The notes under the pieces are model-generated. The model saw nothing but the letters and a program-made list of their open reading frames with translations, was not told the origin of the DNA and searched no databases. A DNA stretch of 64,000 nt from Deinococcota bacterium (lineage in GTDB: Bacteria > Deinococcota > Deinococci > Deinococcales > Thermaceae), in assembly GCA_041695225.1 (NCBI GenBank), contig JBGFRI010000003.1, positions 64,001 through 128,000 on the forward strand. The letters are read 5' to 3'. Made by a program: the position numbers and the translations under genes. Below are positions 82-50,909 of this stretch, one piece after another (the stretch's first letter is position 1; the number at the start of each line of letters is the position of its first letter).

Positions 82-140
82 AGAAACTGCTTGTGCTTGT
101 CTTCGCTACCGCATGATAGACTATTTCATGATAGGAGGAG

Positions 141-1364
141 ATGATAATGAAAATAGTCTATGGCGACCGCGGCCCCGAGATCTGGTCCCGGGGCAGCCTG
201 GTGGGGTACCACTACGAACGGGGTCCTCAGGTACCGCTAGAAATAAGCGGTGGGAACCTCGAGACCATTAAGCAAGTAGCTCTTGAGCTACACAAGCAGC
301 CTGCACACCGGCTTATGGCCCATCAGCTATACTTCTGGCTCATGGGCGCGAAACTCCCTGAGGGATATAAACCTTTAGGGGATGCTCTGGGAGTTGCCGA
401 TGGTCAGTTGTATTTCTTAGGGGCTCTAGCCAGCCGCCAGGCCATCCGAGAGAACTGGGCTCTGGCCTTGAAAAACTTCCCAATGGACTGGTGGCCAGCA
501 TTGCGGCTGTGGCTGCTCTTCCCCTGGAGAGGGCTTGATCAGAGGGTTGTAGATGGCCTGCCAGGCGGGGTTCTCTGTAATGAGCGTCTCCTCCTCTCAC
601 AGGATGGCACCCTTCTTTACGAGGAAGGAGACCTCGATCCCTACTCGGACCTTCTGGAGTGGTTGGAGGGCCAGCCCCTTGAGGCCGCCCTTGAGCTGAA
701 TATACCGGCAGTAGCTGGATGGAAAGTCAATCCAGAGGCGCCACCTATCGCTGGCGTACTGGCACACTGGTACAGGGATGGAAAACCCTGGTTGCTGGGA
801 TCGGCCTTCAATAAGGTCTGGCTCCTGGGGCCCAGAGTAACAGTCTGCCTGAAGCCATCCGCCAAAAAGGTGCTTCGGGAAGCACTCGAGGCCGATCATC
901 TATCACCAGATGACCCCACCTGTGTCTTCTGGGCGCAAGCCACTACCGGAAAAGGTCTTGCCGTAAAGCCAGGTCATGCAAACCTTGTCAGGCGCCTGGA
1001 TTCTTTCCAGTTGTTTTCTGGCAAGAAAACTCGCTGGGTTACGTTGAACAATCAGGCCTACGAAACGTCAGTACCCTTCACCAGGGCCCTGGAGGAGGGA
1101 TGGCTAAATCCCGGTGAGATGTCTACCTGGTTGCTTCGTGAGGGTGGGCAAAAGGCTCTTGAACACTCACACAAGCACCCAATGGAGTACGTTGGCCAGC
1201 TGCAAGGGAACAACGTATACCTGGGCAAAGCGTTCGACCGATGGGAGCTGAGAACTAGTAGCCATCGTATTGGCATCTACTCTTCTCGGCAAGATGCCCA
1301 TACTGCGGTAGTCCGGAACGGCCTGGCCAGCCTGTGGGCCATGGAGCGCTTGGTGGCGCTCTAA
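141..1364 (+). CDS. Unknown ~400-aa paralog family, copy 1
   Basis: 407 aa; motifs HQLYFW, LGDALG, HLSPDDPT..WAQATTG and C-terminal GLASLWAMERL shared with 7 other ORFs; GATAGGAGG leader. Confidence 0.85.
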   Translation: MIMKIVYGDRGPEIWSRGSLVGYHYERGPQVPLEISGGNLETIKQVALELHKQPAHRLMAHQLYFWLMGAKLPEGYKPLGDALGVADGQLYFLGALASRQAIRENWALALKNFPMDWWPALRLWLLFPWRGLDQRVVDGLPGGVLCNERLLLSQDGTLLYEEGDLDPYSDLLEWLEGQPLEAALELNIPAVAGWKVNPEAPPIAGVLAHWYRDGKPWLLGSAFNKVWLLGPRVTVCLKPSAKKVLREALEADHLSPDDPTCVFWAQATTGKGLAVKPGHANLVRRLDSFQLFSGKKTRWVTLNNQAYETSVPFTRALEEGWLNPGEMSTWLLREGGQKALEHSHKHPMEYVGQLQGNNVYLGKAFDRWELRTSSHRIGIYSSRQDAHTAVVRNGLASLWAMERLVAL

Positions 1365-1424
1365 GTAGCTACATCAGCTATGCGGTGCCATACCCAAAGG
1401 TATGGCGCCGCTCTGCTTAATCAC

Positions 1425-1454
1425 AAAAAAGAGACCCCAAAAGGTCTCTTTTTG
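1425..1454. terminator. Bidirectional intrinsic terminator
   Basis: AAAAAAGAGACC-CCAAAA-GGTCTCTTTTT between convergent genes. Confidence 0.7.
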
Positions 1455-1466
1455 CTCCTGCTGCGC

Positions 1467-1877
1467 CTACGGCAAAGTCGCCCAGAGAGGCCTCATCTCC
1501 CTCGAGCCGGAGTAAGAGGGCTCAAGGGTATGCCCCTCCAGCGAGGCCTCCCCTTTGTGCAGGACAACTGTAATCAGGGCCTCCTGGGCCTCGATTCCGC
1601 TCAGCCTGTCCAGTAGCTCCTGTAAGGGAAGGTCTTCCAGGTCGGCGAAGTCACCGAGCCCCTCAATCTCTGCAGCGCTGTAGACCGACGCCTCAATCTT
1701 CCGAGGCGACTTTAGAATCACCTCGAGGCCCTGGCCCTGCTCCTCCAGAACCTGGGCGGCTCTTTTTAGAAGCGCCAGCTCCTGCTGGACAGCTCCCCAG
1801 CTAGTCTCGTCCAGGGCCACTACAATTTGCCCGGACATTTGTTCGTCTGCCGTAAACCCGTATCCATGAATGAACAT
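1467..1877 (-). CDS. Small acidic hypothetical protein
   Basis: ATG at 1877 preceded by GGAGGTGA; 136 aa, D/E-rich. Confidence 0.7.
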   Translation of the reverse strand: MFIHGYGFTADEQMSGQIVVALDETSWGAVQQELALLKRAAQVLEEQGQGLEVILKSPRKIEASVYSAAEIEGLGDFADLEDLPLQELLDRLSGIEAQEALITVVLHKGEASLEGHTLEPSYSGSREMRPLWATLP

Positions 1878-1946
1878 GCTCACCTCCGATAGGGGTCTCC
1901 TATCGGCATATATTATACATCTGGCTTCCTGGTATGATCCGTTCTT

Positions 1947-1979
1947 TCTTACACCCAAACCCTAACCATGGGTGTAAGA
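1947..1979. promoter_or_regulatory. 33-bp palindromic site TCTTACACCCA-N11-TGGGTGTAAGA, copy 1
   Basis: Perfect 11-bp arms; identical arms at 57340 and 61443; lies between divergent promoters. Confidence 0.75.
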
Positions 1980-2028
1980 CGCTGCCATCTCCCACTCTGA
2001 TATATAATGCTCCCCGATAGGAGGAGTA

Positions 2029-4014
2029 ATGGAAAACAAACTCAGTTTCAAGCAGTTCATAGAGCGATTCGGCACCGAGCTGGTAGCCCAGGCCGAGGCC
2101 GCCCTCCCACCCATAGTCACCCAGCCCCTGTATCGGAAGTCTGGGCGCACTCCCAAGGGCCAGCAGGCCCTGGCTTCTGCCGGGTTGCTCCAGCGGCTTC
2201 AACAGGGCCAGGCCATCACCTATCTCCCTGCCGAGATGTCTACGGGTAAAAGCAAAATTGCCCTGGACGCAGTGCTGGCCTACCAGCCCCAAGGGCGCAC
2301 CCTGGTTCTCTGCCCACCCCACCTCGTAGAGAAGTGGAAAAGGGAGGCCGAACTCGAGGGTGCCAGGGGAATAATTCTCAACTCCCCTGCTGACGTGAGG
2401 GCCCTGGCCTCAATGGATGGCCCGTTGGTGGCCGTCCTCTCGCGGGAGAAGGCCAAGCTCGGCTCTGGGTGGAAGCCCGCCGTAACCTGGCGGCGAGGGC
2501 TCCCCACCTGCCCCGACTGCTCCCGGCTGGTTATCGACAAGGACAGGCTGCCCCTAACCCAGTCCGCACTTGAGCGAAAACGCCACTTCTGCAAGTGCGG
2601 CTCTGCCCTCTGGCAGCAGGTAGGCTCAGCCCGGGTTCCCCTGGCCGATTACCTGAAGCGCATCATCCCCAGGGGTTTCTTCAAGACTATGATCCTTGAC
2701 GAGGCCCACGAGTACAAAGCAGGGGACAGCGCTCAGGGTATCGTAGCAGGCAGCCTGGGCTTCTGGGTCGGCCAGGTGCTGGCCCTCACCGGAACCCTGT
2801 TTGGCGGCTACGCCAGCAACCTGTTCCACCTGTTATGGCGGTACATGCCCGAGTTCCGGGCGAAGTACCGCCATAACGAGGCCGCTCGCTTCGTGGCCGA
2901 GTATGGCCTGCTCGAGCGGGTCACCCGCGAGGCAGACTACCGGGATGGCCGGGTCAGCCGGCGCAAGGAGCGTAGCAGCCATACCAGGGAGCGGCCGGGG
3001 CTCTCCCCCTTGTTGCTGCCCTGGCTACTACCAGCCAGCGCCTTTGTGCGTCTGACCGATGTGGTGGAGGGTCTGCCGCCCTACGAAGAGCAAGTGCAAC
3101 TGCTCCAGATGGACGGATTCCACCAGGGGCAGATAAAGCACTTCTACGACGACCTCAAAGAAGCGGTAAACGCAGCCCTCGTCCGGGGCTCCAGGCGGCT
3201 GCTGGGAGCCTATCTGCAAGCTGGCCTATCGGTACCAGATGCACCCTGGGAACCCACCGAGGTAGTCGAGCCCGATACCAAGAGGGTAGTGGCCTCCTAC
3301 GACCCTCTGCCAGGCGAGTACCAGCACGCCAAGGAGCGCGAGCTTCTGGATCTGGTTTGCCGTGAGCAAGCAGGGGGCCGCCGGGTGCTGGTCTACGTCC
3401 AGAACACCCGGGTGCGTGACCAGCTCAGCCGCCTGAAGGCCCAGCTCGAGAACCAGGGCCTCCGGGTAGCGGTACTGCGGGCCGAGACCGTACCCGCAGC
3501 CAGGCGGGAGGCCTGGCTGGCCCAACAGGTGAACCAGGGAGTGGACGTGGTGCTCGCCCACCCCCGCCTGGTGCAGACCGGCCTGGATCTGATCGATTTC
3601 CCCACCCTGGTCTTTTACCAGGTGGAGTATTCGGTCTACACCCTGCGCCAGGCTGCCCGTCGCAGCTGGCGGATCGGGCAGACCCAGCCGGTGCGGGTAG
3701 TCTTCATGGGCTACCAGCAGACCCTGCAGGCAGGGGCTTACAGCCTGATCGCCACCAAGGCCCGCAGTAGTCTAGCCCTCGAGGGGGAGCTGGTAGAGGG
3801 TGGCCTGGTAGCCGCGGCGGAGGAGGATCCCCTGCTCCTGCTGGCCCGCAGTCTGATCAGTCAGACTGATCTGGACTGGCGGGGCAGCCGCCTGGGACTC
3901 GAGAAACTACCAGACCGACAGGTAGAGCTGCCTCTGCTTGCCACCCCCCGCTGGGTCGGTGCAGGCAAAAGCCGGGTACTCCTGCCGGCCGGGCAGCCGG
4001 TCCTGTTTTCCTGA
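2029..4014 (+). CDS. SF2 (SNF2/DEAD-like) helicase with Zn-ribbon insertion
   Basis: Walker A AEMSTGKS, LDEAH, LTGT, TGLDL, RRSWRIGQ; CPDC..CKCG. Confidence 0.85.
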   Translation: MENKLSFKQFIERFGTELVAQAEAALPPIVTQPLYRKSGRTPKGQQALASAGLLQRLQQGQAITYLPAEMSTGKSKIALDAVLAYQPQGRTLVLCPPHLVEKWKREAELEGARGIILNSPADVRALASMDGPLVAVLSREKAKLGSGWKPAVTWRRGLPTCPDCSRLVIDKDRLPLTQSALERKRHFCKCGSALWQQVGSARVPLADYLKRIIPRGFFKTMILDEAHEYKAGDSAQGIVAGSLGFWVGQVLALTGTLFGGYASNLFHLLWRYMPEFRAKYRHNEAARFVAEYGLLERVTREADYRDGRVSRRKERSSHTRERPGLSPLLLPWLLPASAFVRLTDVVEGLPPYEEQVQLLQMDGFHQGQIKHFYDDLKEAVNAALVRGSRRLLGAYLQAGLSVPDAPWEPTEVVEPDTKRVVASYDPLPGEYQHAKERELLDLVCREQAGGRRVLVYVQNTRVRDQLSRLKAQLENQGLRVAVLRAETVPAARREAWLAQQVNQGVDVVLAHPRLVQTGLDLIDFPTLVFYQVEYSVYTLRQAARRSWRIGQTQPVRVVFMGYQQTLQAGAYSLIATKARSSLALEGELVEGGLVAAAEEDPLLLLARSLISQTDLDWRGSRLGLEKLPDRQVELPLLATPRWVGAGKSRVLLPAGQPVLFS

Positions 4015-4112
4015 TCAAGCAGCCACAGCAGAAAAACCGGGGCTTCGGCCCCGGTCTTGTTGTTAATAGCGCTACAGGAATATATACTACATCGTGATAG
4101 GAGGAGAAGAAT

Positions 4113-5048
4113 ATGCGAATAGCCGCCAAAGCAAAAGCTGGTTTCTACCCCACCCCCCGGAGGGTGGTTGAACTCATCCAGTCCCGCATTGCAGGACTGG
4201 GAGATCTGCTGGATCCCTGCGCCGGAGAGGGGGATGCCATCAAGGCCCTCTCCATCAGCACCCAGTGTAGGGCACTGGCCATTGAGTTATCCCAAACCCG
4301 GGCTGCCAGGTGCCGCGAGAAGGGGCTCCAGACCCAGCAGGGAGATTCCCTGCAATACGAAGGAGGCGGCTTCGGCTTGCTCTACCTCAACCCCCCCTAC
4401 GACGATGGGGAAGGTGAGCGACTTGAGTACACCTTCCTCAAACACTGGACGCCCGCCCTGCGACCCAGTGGATTGCTGGTGTACTTGATCCCGGAACGGA
4501 TTCTGCCCCGGGTGGCCGACTTCCTGACTGCCTGGTACGGCGACCTCAGGGCAGTACGTTTTCCTGAGCCGGAGTACCAGGCCTTTAAGCAGATAGTCGT
4601 CTTCGGGAAAAAGCGGGAGGCGGTAGCCGCACCGGAAAGCCTCCAGGTTCAAGGGGTACTCGAGACCGGTAAAGACTGGAGCTACTGGTTTCCCGGAGGC
4701 ACTGGCTGGCTGATGCAGAAAACCGTCCCGGTGGAAGAAGCCCTGGCCCTAGCCAGCAAAAGCCCGCTCTGGGAGCCTTACCAAAGCCGCGCTCTCGAGG
4801 CGTTCCGGCCCCTCCTGCCTCTAAAACAGGCCCACCTGGCCCTACTAATCGCAGGTGGCATCATGGACAACCAGGTCGTGAACCTGGACGGAATGCCTCA
4901 TCTCATCAAAGGCCAGGTTCAAAAGACCGAAACCTTTGTGGAGGAAGAGGAAGAGGACGGCGGGACCAAAACGGTAGCCCGCGAGCGGTTTGAGGTCCAG
5001 GTAATAGCCCTGAACATGGCTACTGCTGAGATCCTGGAGGTGTCCTGA
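4113..5048 (+). CDS. N6-adenine-type DNA methyltransferase (DUF6094-like)
   Basis: GFYPTP, LDPCAGEG, LNPPY; adjacent to a helicase as in many ICEs/plasmids. Confidence 0.8.
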   Translation: MRIAAKAKAGFYPTPRRVVELIQSRIAGLGDLLDPCAGEGDAIKALSISTQCRALAIELSQTRAARCREKGLQTQQGDSLQYEGGGFGLLYLNPPYDDGEGERLEYTFLKHWTPALRPSGLLVYLIPERILPRVADFLTAWYGDLRAVRFPEPEYQAFKQIVVFGKKREAVAAPESLQVQGVLETGKDWSYWFPGGTGWLMQKTVPVEEALALASKSPLWEPYQSRALEAFRPLLPLKQAHLALLIAGGIMDNQVVNLDGMPHLIKGQVQKTETFVEEEEEDGGTKTVARERFEVQVIALNMATAEILEVS

Positions 5049-5548
5049 TGAAGGTCACGATCAACGGGATCCCGGTAGTGCTGGATCGGCTGGCGGTGCA
5101 TCACGCCACTGGCATCCTGGTCTCAGTCGTGGGCGCTCGTGAGGCGGTTTATGCTGCCTACGGCGCCTACCAGCGTGCGCAAGGAATTACCTTGCCTCTT
5201 GACGGCCGGGACATCCGTGTAAACAGCCCCAGCCCGGTCAAAGGCCGCTTCACTACCCTGGCCCGAGGAGTAGTTCACGGTCTGTTCGTGAGGGAGAACC
5301 TTTCCGAATACTATCTGGTTCTCGAGCCCAACAACCCCGACCTGGCGGCAGAAGCCCGCTGGCTCTCCAACCAGATCGGACTACCCATTCTGCCTCACTG
5401 GGTACCAGAAGTGCGCAAGCTGCTGCCAAACCAGGCTTTAACCAGCTGGCGCATGGAGGTGTACTACCTCCCACGCTTCCGAGCCGAGGAAGTCAAGAAG
5501 GCAGTACAGAGCGCAGTAAGGAAGGGCCACCTGACGCTCCCACAGTAG
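5048..5548 (+). CDS. Hypothetical protein
   Basis: 166 aa, coupled (TGATG) to the methyltransferase; followed by a hairpin at 5564-5590. Confidence 0.7.
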   Translation: MKVTINGIPVVLDRLAVHHATGILVSVVGAREAVYAAYGAYQRAQGITLPLDGRDIRVNSPSPVKGRFTTLARGVVHGLFVRENLSEYYLVLEPNNPDLAAEARWLSNQIGLPILPHWVPEVRKLLPNQALTSWRMEVYYLPRFRAEEVKKAVQSAVRKGHLTLPQ

Positions 5549-5617: not shown

Positions 5618-6151
5618 TCAAGCCGCCACTGCAGCCAGCCGCTCCTCCGGCCTATGTGCTTCAACTGCCCGGCAGACTGCCTCGAGGAACAGCCGGGGCA
5701 GGCGCGAGTAGTGCGCCAGCAGCCGCTGGCCCCGACCGGGCTGCTCCAGCCGACTGCTCACCAAAAGATCAAACTCCAGCCAGGCCCGCTCACGCACCAG
5801 CTTCTCGCTGGCTGCAAGCTGGTTGATCCAGTCCTGCGAGAGGGGCTCCTTCAAGCACCGCCTGGCGATTCCCACGGCCTCGGCCCGCTGCCACAGAACC
5901 TGGGGATCGCGCAGCGGCAGTCCCTCGGCCAGGTCGAGTTGCAGCAGGTCGGACAGACGGTACTCGATTCTGGGGTACTGGCCATTCTTTTGCAGGGCCC
6001 CATCCCGGACCAGATCCAGCAGGGCAGTGAGAATCGTGGCCTCAGCCAGCGATCCTCTGAGTCCCCAGTTATCGTGGGCGATCTTGTAGACTTGATCAAG
6101 GGTTTTCGGGCCGTCAGCAATAAGTTGTAGCAGCTGTTCACGCATGGTCAT
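5618..6151 (-). CDS. Hypothetical protein, possible N-terminal winged helix
   Basis: 177 aa, overlaps the hypX stop; N-terminus LLQLIADGPKTLDQV. Confidence 0.6.
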   Translation of the reverse strand: MTMREQLLQLIADGPKTLDQVYKIAHDNWGLRGSLAEATILTALLDLVRDGALQKNGQYPRIEYRLSDLLQLDLAEGLPLRDPQVLWQRAEAVGIARRCLKEPLSQDWINQLAASEKLVRERAWLEFDLLVSSRLEQPGRGQRLLAHYSRLPRLFLEAVCRAVEAHRPEERLAAVAA

Positions 6152-7868
6152 ACCTCTGTATCTCCTCCTGCACCCTGCGGTGCAGGGCTAGATGTGCTGG
6201 TGTACTGGTTGGAGCTATCTTGTAGACAAACTCCCGCCGGGCCTGGTGGTAAGCAGTCTCGCCCCAGAAGTTGCGGCCCATCTGGGCCAGCTCCTCAATC
6301 CGGTAACGCTCAAGGCTCTTGCGCTCTCGGTCTGCCTTTAGGCCCTGCTGCTTCAAGGCTAGAGTAGCTGAGAGGATGTCCGGGTGCAGGGCCTGCCATA
6401 GCTGTTCCTGTACCTTCTCGGCAAAAGCCCCCCTGTCTCCAGGCAGCAAAACATCTACCAGGCCAATCCGCAGCGCTTCTTCATCACCCAGGGGCAGCAA
6501 GCCGTTGGTTAATTGCTGGGCAGTGCGCTGGCCAACCCGGCGCGGCAACAGATAAGTCCAGTATTCCGAGCCATACAGGCCCCCCATCCCCTTGTAGTGG
6601 GGATTCAGCACCACACCCCGGCGCAGCAGCACCCGGTCAGCGGCCAGGGCCAGGATCACTCCACCCGCACCGGCATTTCCTCGCACCGCCGAGAAGACCA
6701 GCTGCTGCTCCATTTCCAGCAGCTCCAGCACCACGTCGTTGATAGCATTGATGCTCTCCCAGCTCTCCAGGGCTGGATCTTTCGCCGCCTCGATGGCCCC
6801 CAGATGGATGCCGTTGCAAAAAGCGTCATGGCCGCCCCACAGCACCAGGGCTGCGATGGGCCGCTGTTTAGCCGTCCGTATCGCTTCCCGCAGACTCCGA
6901 GCCTGCTCAGTGTTGAAAGCCCCGCCCTGGAACTCCCAGGCCAGGTGCCCTACCAGCTGATGGTAGGGGGCACAGTTCACTGTCTCTTCCCAGTAGCGGA
7001 TCTCCTGGTAGCCAGCAGCGCCCCACCGCTCCGGTATCCCGGCCAGGCGGTCCCCCAGCACCTGAGTAGCCGGCAGTTTAATACCGCCTTTGGTCTTCAG
7101 ATGGCTGATCCATACTGCGCCATCCAGTGTCCGCCGCAGGATCGCGCCGTTCTGGTGAGCCAGCACCTCACCCGGCCTACCCTGGCCTACCGGCTCGTAG
7201 TGCACCTGGGCCCCGTAGAGATAGCAGGTAAGGTCCAGCACCTGATCCAGTACACCAGGGGAGCCATCTGCCGCCTGGATGCGCCGGATAACCTCCTGGG
7301 TTGGCATTGTAGCCCAGTCAATCGCCCGGTCTTTCTGCTTGATCACCGGGTGCAGCACCCCCCAGGCCCCCTCGAGGTCCTTCAAAGGAGTAGGCTGCCA
7401 CTCACCCTGCCGCCAGGCTGGAAAGTGGTGAAGGGCCTCGAGGACACACTCCACCGCCGCCTCTACTACCTCATTCTGGTAGATCGAGCTTTTAGGAGCC
7501 TGGCGCATGGGAAACTCCCGCCAGGCCCAGACATCCCCGGCATCCATCTCGGCGTTGGCCTGCAACAGGGTCACTCCCCAGCGGGGCTGGCCCTGCATGA
7601 TGGCGTAATCCAGGCTGTACGCGCCTCGATCTCCGCGCACCCCAGGATGCACAATCAGGGTTGGATAGCGGCTCCAGATGCTCTCCGGCACTGCCGCTTT
7701 GAGAAATGGCGCAAGGATCAGATCGGGCTGGAAGAGTGCCACCGCCTCCTCCATCAGCACATCACTGATAGCAAATTCAACACTCACGGTATGCCCCAGC
7801 CGGGTTAGCTCGATCTGGAAGCGCTGGCTCATCGAATTGTGGGATGTAGTCAGGAACAGAACACGCAT
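6138..7868 (-). CDS. hypX: HypX/HoxX hydrogenase maturation factor (formyltransferase + crotonase fold)
   Basis: MRVLFLTTSHNSMSQR, HPG..GDRGAYSLD, EMDAGD, NAGAGG, LNPHYKGMGGLYGSEYWTYLLP. Confidence 0.9.
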   Translation of the reverse strand: MRVLFLTTSHNSMSQRFQIELTRLGHTVSVEFAISDVLMEEAVALFQPDLILAPFLKAAVPESIWSRYPTLIVHPGVRGDRGAYSLDYAIMQGQPRWGVTLLQANAEMDAGDVWAWREFPMRQAPKSSIYQNEVVEAAVECVLEALHHFPAWRQGEWQPTPLKDLEGAWGVLHPVIKQKDRAIDWATMPTQEVIRRIQAADGSPGVLDQVLDLTCYLYGAQVHYEPVGQGRPGEVLAHQNGAILRRTLDGAVWISHLKTKGGIKLPATQVLGDRLAGIPERWGAAGYQEIRYWEETVNCAPYHQLVGHLAWEFQGGAFNTEQARSLREAIRTAKQRPIAALVLWGGHDAFCNGIHLGAIEAAKDPALESWESINAINDVVLELLEMEQQLVFSAVRGNAGAGGVILALAADRVLLRRGVVLNPHYKGMGGLYGSEYWTYLLPRRVGQRTAQQLTNGLLPLGDEEALRIGLVDVLLPGDRGAFAEKVQEQLWQALHPDILSATLALKQQGLKADRERKSLERYRIEELAQMGRNFWGETAYHQARREFVYKIAPTSTPAHLALHRRVQEEIQRYDHA

Positions 7869-8118: not shown

Positions 8119-8228
8119 CTCTCACTCTCCTATCAACAGAGTATATATCAGCAAAACTGGAGAGCACTACCAGCGTCTCATAAACAAAAAAGAGCAGGAC
8201 ATCCTGCTCTTTTTCTCAGCGTCTCTTG

Positions 8229-9480: not shown

Positions 9481-9572
9481 TCTGTCCTCCTATCGGCAAT
9501 TACTATACCACTCTCTTGACAACCTACCTTGAATATACTACCATATATTTCAAGTATCGAGCAGGAAATAAC

Positions 9573-10893: not shown

Positions 10894-10905
10894 AAGGAGC
10901 AGTGT

Positions 10906-15137: not shown

Positions 15138-15183
15138 GCTACTAAACATTATAGTATACTGTTTGACGATAGGAGGAAGAAAA

Positions 15184-18294: not shown

Positions 18295-18370
18295 AACCTT
18301 CCTCCAACGCAGAGTTTAGCAACTATGAGATTCGATTGTCTACTATCACAACCGGGTATATAATTAACCC

Positions 18371-22648: not shown

Positions 22649-22787
22649 TCTGTAATATACCCAACCCACACTGGATGTCAAGTGGAGCTACAGGGTGTCT
22701 GTCATGATGTCGGACTGGACCCATAACAGCTTCAGTCTAGGCAGTGGTCGTATTAGCGATATAATGCACTGTGATAGGAGGTAATAT

Positions 22788-28209: not shown

Positions 28210-28516
28210 CAGGAGTCTCCGGTTTTTGTTGCAATGCAGATCGCCGCACCCAGGCCGGATGCAAAGTCTCTCATGAAGGCTGAATATACCTGACCAATTT
28301 TATCGCGCAAGCCACTCCCTTCAGGAATGTGGGCTCCCCGCGCTAAAGCGCAAGGCTTTCTGGCGCAGATCCTGTAAGCGCCGGGCGTCCAGGCAGCACA
28401 CCTGGTCTATCGCCGCGTAATCCTTTTTGTCGCAAAAACACTAACTGGATGCGGTTAGGAACAACCTCTCATAGAAGCTGACTATACCTAACACCGATAG
28501 GAGATAATAAGCAAAT

Positions 28517-34729: not shown

Positions 34730-35025
34730 GATTCTCCTCCTATCAAGACGTAATATATACTACTCAGAGCAACCTTGGAAAGCGCCACTCCTGTTACCAG
34801 CATTCTTACACCCAAACTTGCAACAGCCACCACGCTACCCTGACCTCCTCCCTTCCTGGTCTGGTTGAATGTGCAGGCGCAAGCACAGGCGCTTGTGCTG
34901 AAGTGAGATTGTCATATAGGGGATAGAGGAGAGAAAGTTCTCTCAATGTAAGGTAGGGAGTAAAATAAAGCGTAAAGAGTAAAAGATCACTATGGTGATA
35001 TACTGGGTGGCGATAGGAGGCTACC

Positions 35026-36414: not shown

Positions 36415-36637
36415 CAGACCAAAGGACCCCCTGGCTACCAGGGGGTCAATGTTAAGAAGACCGGGATGCTACTCGAAGCCATTCATCCACACCACCAGCA
36501 CAAGCGCCTCTTGTTCCTGGAGAATGTCAACCACCCCTTCCTGAAGGGAGAGGTTTCTCGCGTAACATTATGAGCCTCCACAAAACGATTCTGGCTTCGT
36601 AGGTGGCTGGTATACTATTCCCCGATAGGAGGACAAA

Positions 36638-39797: not shown

Positions 39798-39828
39798 ATT
39801 TTCAGTCTAGCAAAATCCAGCAGCTTCT

Positions 39829-40736: not shown

Positions 40737-40864
40737 TCTGTGACTCCTTCCAGGATAATCTCCTGTCAGGTTCTAATATAGCAATACATTACCTGGAACG
40801 CAACTAAAGACACAGTAGAAGAAGGCCGCACTTCACAAGTGCGGCCCGTCCATTGTTCCTGTTC

Positions 40865-42100: not shown

Positions 42101-42261
42101 ATGTCCTCCTATCAATATCTAGTATATAGCACTTGTTTGCTTGCACCTGGGCAAAAAGTTCTAGTTGAGATTAGCTAGCTACCTTAAAGCGCATATTCCG
42201 GTTGAGGTGCTATAAAAAGAAAGAAGAAATCTGCTATATTGTTTTCCGATAGGAGGACAAA

Positions 42262-44409: not shown

Positions 44410-44426
44410 CTTTCAATTCCAAGATT

Positions 44427-45083
44427 ATGTCCCGCAAACCCAAGCCTCCCAAACCACCCATGATCAGCCCCTCGGGCTTGAAGTACCGGGGCAGCTGGAC
44501 ACCAGCGCTGATCAAGCAGTTTCTGGGCGAGCCAGACGCCACAGCAGTCAACCCGCACTACCGCAGCGGGCCGCGTATGCAGCTGTATCTCCTCGAGCGG
44601 GTGGAGAAAGCGGAAGCCAGCCCAGAGTTCCAGGAGGCGCTGGTAAAAGCCCGGGCCCGACAGAAATCGGCAGAAAAGGCAGTTCAGACCAGGACAAAGC
44701 ACACCGTTGCCCTGGCCCGGCAGCTAGAGCTAACAGTTGAGAAAATACCGCTGGGCATGTTAAAGAAACTGGCAGTAGAGCACTGGCTGGCGTTCAAGAG
44801 AGAGCGGGACTGGTACGAGGACCGCCCACAGCTAGAGCCGTGGGACAAGCCCGATCCTTTCAGAGACCGAATCTGCGTTAACTTCCTGCGCCACCAGGCC
44901 AGCGAGTATCACGTCAATCTCGAGATTGTCTCGGGTAAAACCGGGATCGGGGAGGCGTACTACATTTTCTGGCAACAGATAGGCGTAGCGATCAAAGAGG
45001 CTTATCCGGTTCTTGCAGAGGAGATGGATCGCCAGTTTGCCGAGCGTTTTGGAGCAGAGGTTCAGGACAAATCAGGCGCCTGA
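44427..45083 (+). CDS. Hypothetical protein
   Basis: 218 aa; WT..LI..FLGEPD...NPHY motif. Confidence 0.75.
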   Translation: MSRKPKPPKPPMISPSGLKYRGSWTPALIKQFLGEPDATAVNPHYRSGPRMQLYLLERVEKAEASPEFQEALVKARARQKSAEKAVQTRTKHTVALARQLELTVEKIPLGMLKKLAVEHWLAFKRERDWYEDRPQLEPWDKPDPFRDRICVNFLRHQASEYHVNLEIVSGKTGIGEAYYIFWQQIGVAIKEAYPVLAEEMDRQFAERFGAEVQDKSGA

Positions 45084-45171
45084 GTCTTCCTGAGTGGTAA
45101 AGCCATGAGAAGCTCAGTGTATGCAAAGAAGAGCCAGGGGGGTAAACCCTCCCTGGCAACTGCGCCTGTGC

Positions 45172-45756
45172 CTAGAAGAGGTAGCCGTGGTCGGCCACCT
45201 TCCGCACCTGGTATTGCTGGTCGAAGCACATCCGCTCCGCCAACTCCTGGGCGGAGAGCTTCTTGCCCCGGTCCTCGGGGCGCTGGTTGAGGACCGGGGC
45301 AAGGACACCCCGGGCGTAGATGGCCAGCTCGAGGGGGATCGAGCCGGCCACCACTTTCCCCTCGATGTCCTCGGGCTTCAGGGCCCCGGACTTGACCGGC
45401 ACAGCCGGAAAGTGCTTCCCGACCGCCTCGGCCATCTCCGGGGCGAACCCGAAGGCCAGATCCGGGGCCTCCACGGGCCCGGCCTCGACCTGGTAGGTGG
45501 CACAACCGGTCACCCGGGTACGCAGCACCTCCACGGGGAGGTCGGCCTTCACCTCATCCTGGGTCAGCTTCAGCCCCAGGACGGTGACAGCGCCTGCCAG
45601 AGCAGCCAGGTCAAGGGGCAGCACGCCGAAAACGTGCTTGCCCCGGACCTGATCGGCCGTGGCGTGCTCGAGGACGGGGGTCTTGGTTCTCACCAGCCCG
45701 GACTCAATCAGAAGAGCCCGGGTGCCTTTGTGGCGCGTAACGACAAGTCTTTCCAT
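45172..45756 (-). CDS. Tandem two-domain Csx16-like protein (ring nuclease candidate)
   Basis: VVTRH, G.HV.G.LPL.LAA and YQV, then a second copy GKVVAGSIPLELA..RGKKLSA..YQV; resembles Csx16 (Cas_VVA1548). Confidence 0.7.
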   Translation of the reverse strand: MERLVVTRHKGTRALLIESGLVRTKTPVLEHATADQVRGKHVFGVLPLDLAALAGAVTVLGLKLTQDEVKADLPVEVLRTRVTGCATYQVEAGPVEAPDLAFGFAPEMAEAVGKHFPAVPVKSGALKPEDIEGKVVAGSIPLELAIYARGVLAPVLNQRPEDRGKKLSAQELAERMCFDQQYQVRKVADHGYLF

Positions 45757-45995
45757 ATATTCTCCTCCTATCACTATTCAGCATACAATACCGTCCGTGC
45801 AGGAAAACAAAAATAATGCGAATCCATCGTCACTGCGTCACCAGACCACTTGTTTCCGCTTTGGAGCGCTACTTATCAATGTGACGCATGGTGACGCAAC
45901 GCATGGACTGCCGGACTTTCACAGCGCACTCACCCAGGCTAAGCAAGAAAAGTGAGGTAGGATAGCCTATCTGTGAAATATGACCTTTCACAGAT

Positions 45996-46535
45996 ATGCT
46001 AATCGGGAGGCCTCCAGTGGAACTTAGAGTTGGTTATCCCTACGGTAGTCCCGGGCCCCGGCTGCCAGGTGTGGAGCTGCGTCTAAGCGATACCAGCCCT
46101 ACTCTTCTGATGGTGCTGCCGGAGTTGCGACAGCAGGAAGTTGCGGCAGTTGCAAAAGGTGAGTGCAGGTTTGGCGTCTATGAGGAGGGCCCGATGCTCT
46201 TTTTTCTCTATTGTTTTGATCCGGTCTTTTCCTGGTCCGATACGCCTTACCACCGGGCACTGGAAGAAGCCCGGCGACCCGTCCAGCTAAGCCTCCTTTC
46301 CGAGCGGTCTCGAGCACTGCTGATGGTTGTCCTGGTCAGCGCTGAGGATGGACTGATACAGGTCTTGCGAGCAGTGACCCTGGACCCCCAGGTTACCCGG
46401 GCTTTGTGGCAGGCCGTCCTGTTGCAGGAGACCCTGCCACCCAATTACGACCAGCGGCTCGAGCAGATCTACGCCCGCCTTACCAGCGCACAGATGGCCC
46501 GAAATGGAATTACCTGCCGGGGAGGAGCTGATTGA
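45996..46535 (+). CDS. Hypothetical protein
   Basis: 179 aa; overlaps the recombinase start. Confidence 0.7.
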   Translation: MLIGRPPVELRVGYPYGSPGPRLPGVELRLSDTSPTLLMVLPELRQQEVAAVAKGECRFGVYEEGPMLFFLYCFDPVFSWSDTPYHRALEEARRPVQLSLLSERSRALLMVVLVSAEDGLIQVLRAVTLDPQVTRALWQAVLLQETLPPNYDQRLEQIYARLTSAQMARNGITCRGGAD

Positions 46536-47434
46536 AAAACAAACCAGGAATACAGAACCAGATCTTTTCACCCGAACTAACCCCCTTTGTCCGCTACCTT
46601 GAAAGCGAGCGCGGCCATACTCCCCAGGGCATCCGGCGCTACCGCTATGACGTACAGTTATGGCTCTCCTGGCTGGCGGCGCAGGGTCAGGAAGCCAACC
46701 AGGAGGCTTTACGAACCTTTCTAGGCGAACGCAGCCTGAGCCCCCGCCGTACCCAGGGCTTTATGGCAGCCCTGCGGGCCTACTATCGCTGGCGACAGGA
46801 AGTGTGCGGCGAGGTGGTGGAAGACCCCACCAAAGGGGTGGGCCGCCCCCGGGCCGGGCGCCGCATTCCCAAGCGCCCCAGCCGAGAGGATCTGCAAAAA
46901 CTGCTAAGCGTTCTAAAAGGAGAACCGGAAGTCCGGCTGCTTTCCACTTTCCTACCGTTTCTCTACGGCACTGGCCTGCGGGTCTCGGAGGCCCTGGGGC
47001 TCCGGCTGGAACACCTGATTCTCGAGCAGAGACGGCCAGTAGCCCTGCGGGTGATCGGCAAGGGCGACAAGGAGCGCCTGGTTCCCCTCTCTCCCCTGGC
47101 CCAGCAAGCCCTGGAGGCCTGGCTGACAGCCCGGAGTAGCCGCCGGGGACCGCTCTGGGTCTATCAGCAGAAAAAATACCAGGGCCGCCCGGTCGGCATT
47201 TCCTGGCTGCAAAAGAAACTAGCCAGCCTGGCCCTGCGGGCGGGCCTGGAGGTCTCCCGTTGCAGCCCGCATAAGTTCCGCCATGCCTACGCCACCGAGT
47301 TGGCCGATGGCGGAGTGGGGTTGGATGCGATCAAGGAGCTGCTGGGCCACAGCTACATCAGCACTACCCAGATTTACCTGCATACCGGCTACCAGCGGCT
47401 GCGGCAGGCGGTAGCGCAGCTAAAGACTATCTGA
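46532..47434 (+). CDS. XerC/XerD-like tyrosine recombinase
   Basis: TGLRVSE, GKGDKER, HKFRH, LGH, TTQIY all intact. Confidence 0.92.
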   Translation: MKNKPGIQNQIFSPELTPFVRYLESERGHTPQGIRRYRYDVQLWLSWLAAQGQEANQEALRTFLGERSLSPRRTQGFMAALRAYYRWRQEVCGEVVEDPTKGVGRPRAGRRIPKRPSREDLQKLLSVLKGEPEVRLLSTFLPFLYGTGLRVSEALGLRLEHLILEQRRPVALRVIGKGDKERLVPLSPLAQQALEAWLTARSSRRGPLWVYQQKKYQGRPVGISWLQKKLASLALRAGLEVSRCSPHKFRHAYATELADGGVGLDAIKELLGHSYISTTQIYLHTGYQRLRQAVAQLKTI

Positions 47435-47487
47435 GACACATCTCATCGGCCGGTACTCTGATATACTCTACTCCGATAGGAGGAGAT

Positions 47488-48744
47488 ATGATACAGATTC
47501 GGTACGGCCCCAGCGGGCCAGTTCTTCGGCTCAAAGACCAGGATCTCGGCCCGGTCTGGAAACCAGAGCGGAAAAAGGTTCCCCGCCTCAGCGAGAATGA
47601 GCTTTTCGAGCTAGCTAGTTGGGGTGAGCGGGCCTGGCCCTGGCGCAAGCTAGAGCTGCACCAGCTCTATTTTTTGGCCCGTGGTAGGGAATGCCCGGCC
47701 GAGTACGTGGATATTGGAGCTGCGTTGGGCCGTGATGGGAGCCAGCTCTACCTGCTGGGCCGGCCGATCAACGCTGCTGAGGCCCTGGACTGCTGGCCGG
47801 CAACCCAGCTGGGCATGGAGGAGCCGGGGGAAGTCTACAACCGCCTTCTCTACCAGAAGATGTACGGCTCTGACTGGGGAAAAAACTGGCGCATAGAGAA
47901 TCTGGGAGATCTGGTGATCTCCACCGGCCCGCACAATGCCCGGCTGAACACCCCTCGGGGTGATCTGCTGTTCAGCGGGTATGAGGACACACTGCCCAGG
48001 CCAGCATTGCAAAAGTGGTTGAAGACCACCGATTGGGGGCGGCTACAGATGCTTTCTAAGTACCTGTTTAGCCGCTTGCTGGCCTGGAAGCTCCAGCCGA
48101 GCTTCCGAGTTACGGATACCACCGAAAGCATTAACTTCTGGTGGGAAGGCCAGGAGCCCCGGGTCCTGGTAACCAGGTCGGAAGGAGACTGCTGGTTACT
48201 CACTCCTGCCCGGGCAGACCGGCTCAGCTGGAAGAACCTGCCCCGCCTTCTGGCCGACGGACTGCTGGCGCCCCACAATCCCACTGCCCCTTTCTGGGTG
48301 CAGGCGGTAAGTGGGCTGGAGCTCGAGCCTCTCTTCCTTGCCCGGGCCAGGCAGGCCTGGCTACTTCCAGAGGCCCTCTGCCTGCAACAGGACTCCAACT
48401 TCCATTTTATGGAACCTGGAATAGCGGGAACCTGGGTAGCCATGGAGGCTGGCCTCGAGCGGGGCTTCCTGCCCCGGTTTGTAGAGGAAGCGGGGATGAC
48501 TCCTACCAGCATGAGCCGCTGCTTCGACTTCAGCGAGGGGTACTACCTGGGGCAGGTACATGACGCGGAAATACATCTAAACTATGACCGCACCACCGGG
48601 GAAGAAGAGACGGAGCTTTGGATCTACCAGCAGGGTGCGTGGAAAAGGCCCCCGCTAAGAGGCAAGGCACAGGAGATCCTGGCCAGGCTGGAGCAGGAGG
48701 GCCTGGAAAAGATGCTGGCTATATATCAGCTGGTCAGCATTTAG
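47488..48744 (+). CDS. ~400-aa paralog family, copy 8
   Basis: LHQLYF, LYLLG, AWKLQP, GLLAPHNPT..WVQAVSG, GLEKMLAIYQL. Confidence 0.85.
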   Translation: MIQIRYGPSGPVLRLKDQDLGPVWKPERKKVPRLSENELFELASWGERAWPWRKLELHQLYFLARGRECPAEYVDIGAALGRDGSQLYLLGRPINAAEALDCWPATQLGMEEPGEVYNRLLYQKMYGSDWGKNWRIENLGDLVISTGPHNARLNTPRGDLLFSGYEDTLPRPALQKWLKTTDWGRLQMLSKYLFSRLLAWKLQPSFRVTDTTESINFWWEGQEPRVLVTRSEGDCWLLTPARADRLSWKNLPRLLADGLLAPHNPTAPFWVQAVSGLELEPLFLARARQAWLLPEALCLQQDSNFHFMEPGIAGTWVAMEAGLERGFLPRFVEEAGMTPTSMSRCFDFSEGYYLGQVHDAEIHLNYDRTTGEEETELWIYQQGAWKRPPLRGKAQEILARLEQEGLEKMLAIYQLVSI

Positions 48745-48875
48745 CCACAAGCCACAGGCGATATACAGGGGAGGCCATCTCCCCTGTGTTTTTCTTGTGC
48801 TTTTCCTACAAAAAACAGATCCTTGCTAGCCTGCTGCTCGCGCATCATATATAATCAATCGTGATAGGAGGAGTT

Positions 48876-49400
48876 ATGAAGAAAAAGGAAGTAATCATTG
48901 GATTGGACCCGAACCAGTTTGGGGCCTACGGGGTCGCCTTCACGGAAGGGGACCACCGGGTCTACCCCTTCCGGCTGTCCCAGCAGCCCCAACAGCCGGG
49001 GGACTACCACATCGACTACCTGGTGCGGCTGCTGGCCCGCACCTCGGTGGTCGGGATAGAGGTCATTGAGGGCCTCGAGGAGCATCTGGCCAAGCGGGAC
49101 TACCAGATGCTGCTCCAGGCGCAGGTAATGGCCGAGTCCCTCGCCGACATCTGCGAGGAAGCCGGGGTAGAGGTACGCCGCTACTCCGGCCGCTGGCCAG
49201 CCCGGGTGGGGCTGGAGGAGATCCGTCAGGGCCAGGGGGCCTGGATGCAGCTTCTGCTGCATCGGCCCTGGGTATCCAAGGGCTATCTCCAAAAAAGCCT
49301 GGGTAAACAGTTCCGGCCGATGCTCCCGATGACGGAGCATCACTGGGACGCCTTGGGGCTGGCCGCCCTGGCCCAGCGCGAGACCGAGAGGTACAGGTAG
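48876..49400 (+). CDS. RuvC-like nuclease, copy 3
   Basis: IIGLDP ... VGIEV ... HHWDALGLA; GATAGGAGG leader. Confidence 0.7.
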   Translation: MKKKEVIIGLDPNQFGAYGVAFTEGDHRVYPFRLSQQPQQPGDYHIDYLVRLLARTSVVGIEVIEGLEEHLAKRDYQMLLQAQVMAESLADICEEAGVEVRRYSGRWPARVGLEEIRQGQGAWMQLLLHRPWVSKGYLQKSLGKQFRPMLPMTEHHWDALGLAALAQRETERYR

Positions 49401-49478
49401 ATCGGGAGGCCGGGTAATCCCCGGCCTCTCACACTTGTGCAACCAGATGTCCTGCAAGCCGCTATAATCATTCCTGCT

Positions 49479-49757
49479 ATGACCAGCACGCACCAGTATT
49501 CTGGAAGCCTCTGGACGCGCCTGCCCGAGAGTCTGGCCTGTGTACTGCCCCTTGATACCAGGAAGTGGGAGGCGGTTGCCGAACTGTCGCCGGCTGAACA
49601 GCTATACTGGCTGGGTATTGAAGATGTAATCCTGGAGGTGGTTAGCCGTCAGGGCAAGGTACTGGGAATAGGCCCGTTGATACTCTCTTTGACTCTGTTA
49701 CCTCAGCTCAACCAGGACGAGGCTTATTTCCGCCAGCACGGTGGAGTACAGGCCTGA
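49479..49757 (+). CDS. Hypothetical protein
   Basis: TATAAT shortly upstream of the ATG; 92 aa. Confidence 0.45.
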   Translation: MTSTHQYSGSLWTRLPESLACVLPLDTRKWEAVAELSPAEQLYWLGIEDVILEVVSRQGKVLGIGPLILSLTLLPQLNQDEAYFRQHGGVQA

Positions 49758-49799
49758 GCAGGGACAGGCTTCTCGCTCCCATTCGTAATACTTGGGGAA

Positions 49800-50678
49800 T
49801 CAGGCCAGCTGTTCCAGTAGGCCCCGCCGTACCAGCCGGGCATCGCCCAGATAACGGCCCAGCAGCTGCTCGAGCCCCGCTACCGGGTGCAGGCTCTGGG
49901 GGGCCCGGGGGTCTCTGCCAGGAGTGGTGGCCGTGAGACAGAACAGGCTGACCGAGAGGTCTGCCAGGGTTGTGGGCAGTTCCGGACCAGCAGGAGTTTC
50001 TACTCGCAGCAATCCCGTACCAGGGGCAAAGATCGAAGGCAGGGGAAGCCGCACATACCAGGAGTGGGAGGCCTCAAGCAGGAAGATAGGTGTACGTTCC
50101 CCAGCTTGCAGCTTATTTAGCAAAGGCAGGGCCTCCGGGGGCAGATACCGGACGGCCTGGGCTTTGGTATATCCCAGCACTCCCGGCCGGTGGGCCCGGG
50201 TCAGCTGTCCATCGGCCACTACCAGGCCCTCCGGCAGGCGCTCGATCAGCGCGGCCTCCTGTCTGCGTAAAAGGGCGGTCAGAGCAGCAGGCATCTGCTC
50301 TGGAGACATCTCCGGCAGAGGTACCGGGGTGTAGCCCGGCGCTGCTGGGGCGGTCAGGCTGTTGTGCAACAGCAACCGGTGAATCACAGGAGTCTCCCAG
50401 AGGCGCAAACCTTCTGCGTCACGCACCAGGGCCCCCACCACCAGACTGGCCAGGAGGCCGGCCTCCCCGCCGGTTCCCCACACCCGGGCCTCTATCCGCA
50501 GCCGCCCATCCACGAAGTACAGCAGGGGCCAGTCCTCAGGGGCTACAGGCGGGGGCCGCCGGGCCTCCCAGGAACCTTCCAGGCCCAACACGGCAGGACA
50601 GGCCGCCTCGACAGACTCATCCAGTGCGGCCCGGCTGGGTAGCCGGTAGTCAGGATTCCAGGAATCAAGCTGCCACAT
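49800..50678 (-). CDS. nurA: NurA-like nuclease
   Basis: FVDG, ADG, YTK, GERTP, RAPQ.L.PV..LE..L. Confidence 0.8.
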   Translation of the reverse strand: MWQLDSWNPDYRLPSRAALDESVEAACPAVLGLEGSWEARRPPPVAPEDWPLLYFVDGRLRIEARVWGTGGEAGLLASLVVGALVRDAEGLRLWETPVIHRLLLHNSLTAPAAPGYTPVPLPEMSPEQMPAALTALLRRQEAALIERLPEGLVVADGQLTRAHRPGVLGYTKAQAVRYLPPEALPLLNKLQAGERTPIFLLEASHSWYVRLPLPSIFAPGTGLLRVETPAGPELPTTLADLSVSLFCLTATTPGRDPRAPQSLHPVAGLEQLLGRYLGDARLVRRGLLEQLA

Positions 50679-50909
50679 ATCTTACCTGTGCTTTTTGCCG
50701 TGCTTCTTGCGTCCCAGGTACCGGGCCGTCTGGCCTTCCTCTACCAGCAGCTCCTGAATCAAGTAATGCCCTTTGGTACCGATCGGAATACGCCGGGTTA
50801 ACTGCATCCACTGACCCTTTTTCCCTGCACACTGCCAGCTCATAGCTAACTGTATTATATATCAGACAGTGATAGGAGTACAGAGGCAAGCATAACTCCA
50901 TGCTCAACT

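Follow-up and report, generated by a model that had tools for sequence, protein, structure and literature searches.

The window analyzed here, 64,000 nucleotides in length, comprises positions 64001-128000 of C8, a plasmid contig of 150,324 bp in the source assembly (labelled G000) of a Deinococcota bacterium. Many genes of C8 are preceded by a short repeated motif, TAnnnT-N7-GATAGGAG, and comparisons with other genomes (those labelled G041, G045, G046 and G020 are named below) support the view that this motif is a plasmid-specific promoter joined to a leader. A conserved, structured, promoter-bearing element with a seed complementary to the leader exists and co-occurs with the motif. We lean toward the reading that one anti-leader small RNA (sRNA) controls about 35 plasmid genes that have this promoter/leader module in common. 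The element would be expressed as an RNA, pair with the leaders and lower translation or stability, as we infer from its sequence features.

An earlier sequence-only reading of this DNA had described 18 copies of the motif and had taken them to define a regulon, possibly controlled by one DNA- or RNA-binding factor. The observation is confirmed and the interpretation is partly supported: the concrete candidate for a single controlling factor is the conserved sRNA with its perfect anti-leader seed, and none of the proteins named at that time. Of the three related plasmids, just one (G041) has a homolog of the XRE protein at 43708, the open reading frame (ORF) nearest to the supposed RHH protein at 11438 is located at 11430, and 38254 is an integrase-family gene. 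ORFs 11430 and 10906 were rejected as regulators, having no homolog in related plasmid contigs, as was ORF 37966, which matches G046 only.

Distribution and anatomy of the motif

GATAGGAG was found 20 times in the window, compared with 2.0 +/- 1.5 times (maximum 6) in 100 dinucleotide-preserving shuffles. A -10-like hexamer or near-hexamer is located 7 nt upstream, and a start codon shortly downstream, of 18 of these copies; the remaining two (52667+ and 60338+) lie inside genes of the opposite strand, have neither a -10 hexamer nor a start codon, and are at chance level. All 18 coordinates of the sequence-only reading are present, TAnnnT ends exactly 7 nt upstream in 15 of them, as it had reported, and the hexamers at 8134 (TATATA), 28496 (TATACC) and 50871 (TATATC) are imperfect, as it had also stated. 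A weight matrix built on the 32 strict plasmid sites (TAnnnT-N7-GATAGGAG) and applied at a threshold score of >=18 added two degenerate window sites, 18347- and 40767-. When plasmid and chromosome were scanned, 32 strict copies were found on C8 and none in the other 49 contigs of the assembly (2.68 Mb), and the motif is thus not equally common on the host chromosome; the matrix gave 37 sites and none, respectively. Four of 68 genomes of the family are rich in the motif, with 32 copies in G000, 12 in G041 (all on one 124-kb contig), 15 in G045 and 13 in G046. The other 64 have at most two copies each, the same as a reversed-pattern control (0-2 per genome), and with a stricter TATnnT version of the pattern the other 359 of 363 genomes of the order have at most one. 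Viral contigs gave 52 matches, every one single and none in a cluster. Among at least 116 matches listed in a scan of genome contigs there was one clustered locus, which is of the same plasmid family. No description of the motif or of the sRNA was found in the literature searched, supplements being outside the search.

The plasmids of G000, G041, G045 and G046 have a common conjugation backbone, their coupling proteins being 68-75% and their VirB4-like proteins 75-79% identical. Homologs in another plasmid are known for 24 of the motif-led C8 genes, and in 19 of these cases a homolog bears the motif too; this holds for just 2 of 67 genes without the motif (Fisher p = 4e-13, the plasmids being kin and not independent). 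The median protein identity of the motif-motif homolog pairs is 43%. Comparison of their upstream DNA, with the sites anchored by the matrix, showed about 25% identity at -50 to -17 and in the spacer, and 91-100% at TA...T and GATAGGAGG. The closest annotated public plasmid is NC_014214.1 from Allomeiothermus silvanus DSM 9946 (circular, 124,421 bp; 73.6% identity by coupling-protein tblastn), in which six sites have the RefSeq start codon exactly 14 nt after the G that opens the core. Another canonical motif of this plasmid, at 19402 (-), is followed by the start of an unannotated ORF (MGIN...) abutting an IS982 insertion, and on G045:C8 and G046:C77 the homologous starts have the motif in front as well; the gene therefore appears to be interrupted in NC_014214.1. 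Three metagenome contigs with a full-length relative of a 90-amino-acid protein of the window have the motif directly upstream in each case, and in two of these contigs there are five sites within 19 kb or less. The motif is absent from all 36 loci with merely partial matches to the 90-amino-acid protein.

The hexamer has T1, A2 and T6 in 32/32 strict C8 sites, which is partly a result of site selection. It is mostly TATACT or TATAAT, while host leaderless promoters are mostly TAGACT-like; the -10 hexamer of the motif (TATAmT) is near-consensus and closer to the consensus than that of the host leaderless promoters. A TGn sequence is found right before the hexamer in 12/32 sites of C8, 6/12 of G041:C3 and 7/11 of G045:C8, compared with 36/263 host leaderless-type promoters and 92/1330 random TAnnnT sequences, so it is enriched at the motif and not universal. 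The best TTGACA match in motif promoters was no better than background as a -35 element, and a standard -35/-10 scan of positions 33000-51000 recovered just one motif promoter. The 7-nt spacer is unconserved except for its final base, a pyrimidine in 31/32 sites. GATAGGAG is invariant at strict sites and the base that follows is G in 28/32.

The hexamer is located exactly 7 nt upstream of the start-linked GATAGGAG copies in 29/33, 12/16, 15/18 and 13/18 cases in the four genomes (69/85 when all start-linked copies are pooled), and 10/85 have no TAnnnT at all. Where a listed start-linked copy has no perfect hexamer, a near-hexamer is present in most cases, and the promoter-less copies that were examined closely are intragenic or correspond to the complement of the sRNA. 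The start codon comes 12-17 nt after the G in 27 of the 30 strong C8 sites, with a mode of 14. Because the hexamer spacing is fixed at 7 nt and the start distance is variable, the box is tied to the promoter and not to the start codon.

Upstream of the first start codon of 2780 long ORFs of the host chromosome, TAnnnT was counted 174 times at a distance of 6 nt, 89 times at 7 nt, 67 times at 8 nt and 57 times at 9 nt, with a background of about 25 at other distances. Such spacing is a leaderless signature known from Deinococcus (PMC4007540). Because the host leaderless spacing is 6-7 nt, the base at -1 is a pyrimidine and a G occupies the 7-nt position, this G is the expected +1; transcripts would begin there, and the adjacent A is a less likely start. 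The predicted leader would be 12-17 nt long and its first nine bases would constitute the Shine-Dalgarno site. The host 16S rRNA ends in ...GGAUCACCUCCUUUCU; between its last ten bases and GAUAGGAGG, 8/9 positions are complementary, the U giving a U-U mismatch. The conserved GAT goes beyond the Shine-Dalgarno core, as the sequence-only reading had noted. The four bases that precede 197 chromosomal GGAGG sites do not show GATA, and just an A at -1 is enriched (89/197). Since chromosomal GGAGG sites lack the GATA context, the extension is not a habit of the host. Folding showed eight canonical leaders to be unstructured. In two variant leaders (window 1904- and C8 47781-), a 6-bp hairpin, GAUAGG/CCUAUC, begins at the predicted +1 G and is followed by a separate GGAGGUGA.

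A candidate anti-leader small RNA

A copy of GATAGGAGG that has no hexamer is located between uvrD and the gene for a 135-amino-acid protein, at C8 37315 (minus) and at 29185 in NC_014214.1. About 110 nt around this copy are conserved between the two plasmids, unlike other intergenic DNA. The candidate sRNA gene is C8:37268-37364 (+), 26.7 kb upstream of the window. The corresponding pattern, GATAGGAGGT-N4-7-TTTC-N10-22-ACCTCC, is found once each in G000, G041, G045 and G046 and is absent from the other 64 family genomes. The element was first read on the GATAGGAGGT strand, as a decoy or leader with an anti-Shine-Dalgarno loop; the opposite strand is now preferred, since promoter, GAAA loop, G-U pairs and U-tracts fit that strand.

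A covariance model of the sRNA gave a single match in the host (103.7 bits, C8:37268-37364 +) and no copy inside the window. A further match, with 44.3 bits and E = 1.4e-7, revealed a fifth copy in G020, which belongs to the same genus. The promoter is present in 5/5 copies and consists of TTGAC(T/A/G), 17-18 nt, TGn and TA(CGC/TTT/GCC)T (TTGACT-17-TACGCT in C8), 7-8 nt before the first hairpin. This 5' hairpin has a GGAGGU loop and stems GCCGCU/AGCGGC, GCCGUC/GACGGC or GCUCACG/CGUGAGC, and the second hairpin has a GAAA tetraloop and stems CUCC/GGAG, GCUC/GAGC or CCACC/GGUGG. The seed, ACCUCCUAUC, is found in 5/5 copies, is the perfect complement of GAUAGGAGGU, and is unpaired in the minimum-energy folds of the C8 and G041 copies. 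The 3' part of all copies forms a GC-rich terminal hairpin of 10-15 bp. The G020 copy (locus L244 of G020:C6, 483-579, minus strand) has the same promoter type and seed, a different 5' hairpin and a UUUUU terminator. Its neighbor gene (620-917, plus strand) is a single motif-led homolog of the 135-amino-acid protein gene, apparently decayed after about 25 codons, and GATAGGAG is otherwise at background level in G020. The sRNA is divergently transcribed from the conserved 135-amino-acid neighbor, and the arrangement in G020 suggests that the two are an ancestral core pair. Weak matches of the covariance model in other genomes (<=27 bits) were discarded, the seed being absent from them. Rfam had nothing at the sRNA position at E<=1 and nothing in the window at gathering score.

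Covariation was assessed in a model-fitted alignment of four distinct sequences. Ninety-four percent of the cells pair, compared with 70% in shuffles (0/500) and 34-50% in slid controls, and 16/25 pairs are altered on both sides (1/500 shuffles). Thirteen cells are G-U or U-G when the sRNA strand is read, and the opposite strand would have A-C mismatches in their place.

The predicted energy of the leader-seed duplex at 37 C is -16.7 (A at +10) or -17.6 (U at +10) kcal/mol, and that of the duplex between leader and 16S tail is -12.3 or -13.2 kcal/mol; the gap persists at 55 and 65 C. Replacement of the U by A in the leader is predicted to reverse the order, with -13.3 kcal/mol for the seed and -16.5 kcal/mol for the 16S rRNA. 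Conservation of the leader covers G+1 to G+9 and often U+10, an extent equal to that of the seed. Pairing with the sRNA would explain the invariant GAU, above all the U, because the leader matches the sRNA at 10/10 positions and the ribosome at 8/9. The two hairpin-variant leaders may escape the sRNA, since their GAUAGG is hidden in cis and another ribosome site is used.

In the mechanism that we propose, about 35-37 transcription units would use one cis module, composed of an often TG-extended -10, a 7-nt spacer ending in a pyrimidine, and GATAGGAGG. The main RNA polymerase of the host would start at the G, and each mRNA would open with 5'-GAUAGGAGG, followed by 3-8 nt and the start codon. 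The sRNA would pair with these common 5' ends, mask the ribosome-binding site and set the expression of the whole set together. The genes under this control would include those for SSB, UvrD, the sliding clamp, a DnaQ-like exonuclease, an ArdC-like protein, a methyltransferase, a MoxR/VWA pair and eight paralogs. We speculate that a freshly transferred plasmid, arriving without the sRNA, would express the set in a burst, which would be one of replication, repair and anti-restriction genes because all of them start with the same 5'-terminal ribosome site. A wider idea, "one seed, one leader", is that an sRNA mimicking the anti-Shine-Dalgarno sequence serves as a master off-switch with a burst before it builds up, and that the same principle may be behind the start-associated sequences (SAS) of Cluster K1 mycobacteriophages; we put this forward tentatively, as a possibility and not as an expectation.

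Motif-led genes and the plasmid that carries them

According to crude gene calls, 36 of the 129 first genes on the plasmid carry the motif. Those with family matches encode SSB, UvrD, an SNF2-like helicase, a DnaQ-like exonuclease (with a staphylococcal-nuclease-like gene behind), the DNA polymerase III beta clamp, a dNMP phosphatase, an ArdC-N-like anti-restriction protein, a DUF6094 methyltransferase, a MoxR ATPase with its VWA/DUF2201 partner, a Gp3-like recombination directionality factor, Cas_VVA1548, an SLH protein and a ParB_N protein. The set is thus rich in DNA-metabolism and anti-restriction functions, in line with the program suggested by the sequence-only reading. Its list of members stood for the eight paralogs, the Csx16-like gene (Cas_VVA1548), the DUF6094 methyltransferase, the helicase and two acidic proteins (isoelectric point 4.4), all of which are motif-led; the RuvC-like gene could not be identified, there being no Pfam or PHROG match. 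Rep3, ParA/ParB, the coupling protein and three tyrosine recombinases all lack the motif, as the same reading had said of the backbone. The eight paralogs (about 400 amino acids) have mutual identities of 24-31%, with one doubtful member at 15%, and the family has no Pfam, PHROG or Atlas match. Several of those checked are single units ending in a terminator-like hairpin. One paralog copy is located on G045:C1 and one on G046:C166, both motif-led. Several small motif-led proteins, including two acidic ones, have no family match. The motif sites of the window are shown in Table 1.

Table 1. Motif sites of the window with the genes that follow them (coordinates of the window; gene coordinates in parentheses).
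Hexamer, spacer and leader	Position	Strand	Following gene	Remarks
TAGACT-N7-GATAGGAGG	117..138	+	paralog (141 or 147 to 1364)	matrix 35.1
TATAAT-N7-GATAGGAGA	1896..1917	-	136-amino-acid acidic protein (1467-1877)	variant leader; gene has separate GGAGGUGA site
TATAAT-N7-GATAGGAGG	2003..2024	+	SNF2-like helicase (2029-4014)	
TATACT-N7-GATAGGAGG	4083..4104	+	DUF6094 methyltransferase (4113-5048), then gene 5048-5548	
TATATA-N7-GATAGGAGA	8126..8147	-	66-amino-acid protein (7918-8118) and formyltransferase/enoyl-CoA-hydratase fusion (6138-7868)	imperfect; matrix 15.5
TATAGT-N7-GATAGGAGG	9486..9507	-	254-amino-acid paralog-like protein (8716-9480)	
TATACT-N7-GATAGGAGG	15155..15176	+	140-amino-acid acidic protein (15184-15606)	G045 and G046 homologs also motif-led
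TATACC-N7-GATAGTAGA	18339..18360	-	ParB_N protein (17263-18294)	degenerate; 53 nt ahead of gene; matrix 18.1
TATAAT-N7-GATAGGAGG	22760..22781	+	paralog (22788-24020)	
TATACC-N7-GATAGGAGA	28483..28504	+	SLH-domain protein (28517-30541)	imperfect; motif kept in G041 homolog
TATATT-N7-GATAGGAGG	34736..34757	-	paralog (33428-34729)	
TATACT-N7-GATAGGAGG	34999..35020	+	462-amino-acid protein (35026-36414)	doubtful paralog, 15% identity
TATACT-N7-GATAGGAGG	36611..36632	+	paralog (36638-37792)	
TATATT-N7-GACAGGAGA	40759..40780	-	90-amino-acid protein (40464-40736)	degenerate; gene present in all related plasmids; matrix 22.8
TATACT-N7-GATAGGAGG	42105..42126	-	paralog (40865-42100)	back-to-back with site 42235..42256
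TATATT-N7-GATAGGAGG	42235..42256	+	paralog (42262-43443)	then terminator-like hairpin 43457-43487
TATGCT-N7-GATAGGAGG	45764..45785	-	Cas_VVA1548 (Csx16-like) (45172-45756)	
TATACT-N7-GATAGGAGG	47462..47483	+	paralog (47488-48744)	then terminator-like hairpin 48763-48789
TATAAT-N7-GATAGGAGG	48850..48871	+	174-amino-acid protein (48876-49400)	G041 and G046 homologs also motif-led
TATATC-N7-GATAGGAGT	50858..50879	+	only a 26-codon ORF (50900-50980)	imperfect; matrix 22.7

The transcript predicted from the last site of Table 1 would be antisense to the 3' end of the gene for a 1602-amino-acid Type ISP restriction-modification protein (50910-55718, minus strand). Several sites form back-to-back divergent pairs. 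In the pair at C8 50612/50635 (C8:50605-50643), the G starts are 23 bp apart and the -10 hexamers overlap in the palindrome AGTATACT; because of this overlap, the two promoters cannot be occupied simultaneously.

Judging from its gene content, the window is part of a conjugative plasmid of about 150 kb. Family scans showed that C8 encodes Rep3, ParA/ParB, a second ParB_N protein, a type IV coupling protein and a VirB4-like ATPase, and also a secretin, type II/IV-pilus-like proteins, a Type ISP restriction enzyme and a type I-E Cascade. The termini of C8 have a 121-bp overlap within a 72-nt tandem repeat (1-200 and 150125-150324), which fits a circular replicon and is not proof of one. This terminal repeat sits in a coiled-coil-like gene related to positions 57501-58094 of the window. 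The Cascade genes (Cas6e-like, Cse1, Cse2, Cas7 and Cas5) are located at C8:59657-63666, directly ahead of the window, and an isolated Cse2-like gene is found at C8:1989-2654; general family scans of the plasmid proteins showed no Cas3, Cas1 or Cas2. A gene for a DdrB-like single-strand-annealing protein (window 19628-20020, minus strand; Pfam PF12747, E=3e-13) is of the leaderless type by a crude call. In PLSDB, positions 22000-46999 of the window had no megablast match, and tblastn with one paralog gave no match.

Alternative explanations and related systems

The motif could be a cassette that acts only in cis. A strong -10 would be followed by a 5'-terminal Shine-Dalgarno site that recruits the 30S subunit and shields the mRNA from RNase J in the manner of the stabilizer Shine-Dalgarno (STAB-SD) sequences; there would be no trans regulator, and the sRNA would regulate just its neighbor or do something else. 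We consider this explanation rather unlikely as a whole, although it is compatible with most of the data. It agrees with the pairing of GAUAGGAGG with the 16S tail at 8/9 positions, with a -10 nearer to the consensus than that of the host leaderless promoters, and with the insulation of motif genes as single units with terminator-like hairpins. The host carries RNase J (TIGR00649, 541 bits with a cut-off of 400; G000:C30:6167-7783), so a ribosome on the 5'-terminal site could shield the mRNA. The variant leaders swap the free 5' site for a 5'-terminal hairpin and a separate site, two classical 5' stabilizers according to a review of such elements (PMC4113751). However, a cassette of this kind leaves unexplained why the third base is always U, a mismatch with the 16S rRNA, why host GGAGG sites have no GATA context, and why a single-copy RNA that is a perfect complement is found in 4/4 motif plasmids. 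Other observations count against control of the set by the sRNA. The seed is just 9-10 nt long and its predicted duplex energy is about -9 to -12 kcal/mol at 55-65 C; its ACCUCC would also contact ordinary chromosomal GGAGG sites, and the loop GGAGGU of the 5' hairpin could pair with the seed itself. The U at +10 that completes the 10-bp match is found in only 9/32 C8 leaders. Only the G020 and G045/G046 copies have a clear U-tract behind the last hairpin, and the covariation comes from four distinct but related, model-aligned sequences, the G045 and G046 sRNAs being identical. The sRNA might also act solely on its divergent 135-amino-acid neighbor.

Protein-based explanations were weighed as well. 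In the KorA/KorB system of the IncP plasmid RK2 and in the R388 network, palindromic protein-binding operators are found at variable positions. The plasmid motif is like them in being a short sequence repeated in many plasmid promoters that would place accessory and establishment genes in one circuit, and the GATAGGAG box (+1 to +9) could be the DNA operator of a plasmid repressor, such as the 90-amino-acid protein (40464-40736), in a regulon of the KorA/KorB kind. The gene for this protein is found in C8, G041, G045, G046 and the three metagenome contigs, always motif-led; its model has three helices with weak helix-turn-helix leads, and its own motif is degenerate in C8 and G045. However, there was no significant family or fold match (Pfam E=0.03; best Foldseek E=0.4; pLDDT confidence score 63.7), and the box, which lacks symmetry and always points in the direction of transcription, also serves as a ribosome site. 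Unlike those operators, the box is fixed at the predicted +1 and complementary to an RNA. We find a repressor of this type improbable. Promoters of the T7 type have an AT-rich block and TATA before GG, a superficial likeness to the motif, which might then be read by a plasmid-encoded polymerase or sigma factor as a phage-type promoter with a conserved +1 region. This is very unlikely: no RNA polymerase or sigma family was found among the 168 plasmid proteins scanned, the T1, A2, T6 rule and the TGn extension are sigma-70 promoter features, and the seven bases that a T7-type enzyme would read are unconserved. The motif does hold the universal GGAGG core and a generic -10, as expected if it were a host promoter/ribosome-site consensus, a chance repeat, or a copied mobile repeat or recombination site. 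Such ordinary origins are hardly credible given its absence from the 2.68 Mb of chromosome, the low counts of the reversed-pattern control, the single matches in viral contigs and the lone cluster, of the same plasmid family, among the genome-contig loci listed; moreover, the copies have unrelated flanks and spacers and so do not represent duplicated DNA.

Control by an anti-leader sRNA would build on known types of control. The STAB-SD sequence is GAAAGGAGG. Like it, the plasmid leader is a strong Shine-Dalgarno-like sequence near the mRNA 5' end that can hold the 30S subunit and block RNase J, an enzyme that the host has. The two differ in one base, U for A in the plasmid leader, which is the base favoring the sRNA, and the plasmid site is predicted at the very 5' end with a start codon 3-8 nt on. 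The STAB-SD of Bacillus thuringiensis cry3A is described as a 5' stabilizer (Agaisse and Lereclus 1996, according to the review PMC4113751). While a STAB-SD does not start translation, a start codon follows in 27/30 strong C8 sites; the plasmid leader may still function like a STAB-SD.

Plasmid antisense RNAs and type I toxin-antitoxin pairs, such as FinP/traJ, CopA/repA, Sok/hok and OrzO/zorO, act on one mRNA, mostly from the opposite strand. The candidate sRNA is like them in being plasmid-borne, constitutively promoted and hairpin-rich, in having exposed bases that would cover the ribosome site of the target, and in having a divergent neighbor. It differs in that one seed would reach about 35 unlinked mRNAs, because one 5'-terminal leader is common to them all.

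The SAS of Cluster K mycobacteriophages, 5'-GGGATAGGAGCCC, were reported by Pope et al. (2011, PMC3203893). They are described there as 13-bp sequences with at most 2 mismatches, present in 11-19 copies per genome before the starts of unrelated non-structural genes and absent from the host, and their role was still termed unknown in accounts from 2024-2025 (PMC11373665, PMC12699233). SAS and plasmid motif have an identical GATAGGAG core, conservation beyond the Shine-Dalgarno core, and a location a few bases before start codons. However, the SAS flanks GG...CCC are not shared: here G is found at -1 in 1/32, C at +8 in 0/32 and C at +9 in 4/32 sites. SAS are tied to the start codon and the plasmid motif to the -10; in Anaya (JF704106), about 18-20 nt separate the end of the upstream promoter -10 from the SAS, and many SAS are promoter-less. 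Furthermore, SAS are all on one strand of a phage of Actinobacteria, whereas the motif is on both strands of a Deinococcota plasmid. Anaya, a Cluster K1 phage, has a sole reverse-oriented SAS (59870-59882), in the 385-bp gap between gp96 and gp97; it makes up the apical loop (10 nt, CCUCCUAUCC) of a long hairpin, resembles in this the single anti-leader copy described here, and is possibly an anti-SAS RNA. A search of the last 9 kb of Pixie and of ZoeJ gave no anti-SAS copy.

What is newly described is a promoter and 5'-terminal leader module specific to a plasmid family, together with a candidate anti-leader sRNA. If the proposed control is true, a compact circuit made of one promoter type, a 10-nt leader and one sRNA would join establishment, DNA-repair and anti-restriction genes. 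The leader lets unknown members of the program be listed, among them the eight paralogs, the two acidic proteins and the Csx16-like protein. The single U that divides "ribosome" from "sRNA" is a precise and testable design rule, and the presence of the close relative NC_014214.1 in a cultured type strain makes the prediction testable at the bench. The common GATAGGAG core and the Anaya hairpin also offer a testable idea for the role of the Cluster K SAS.

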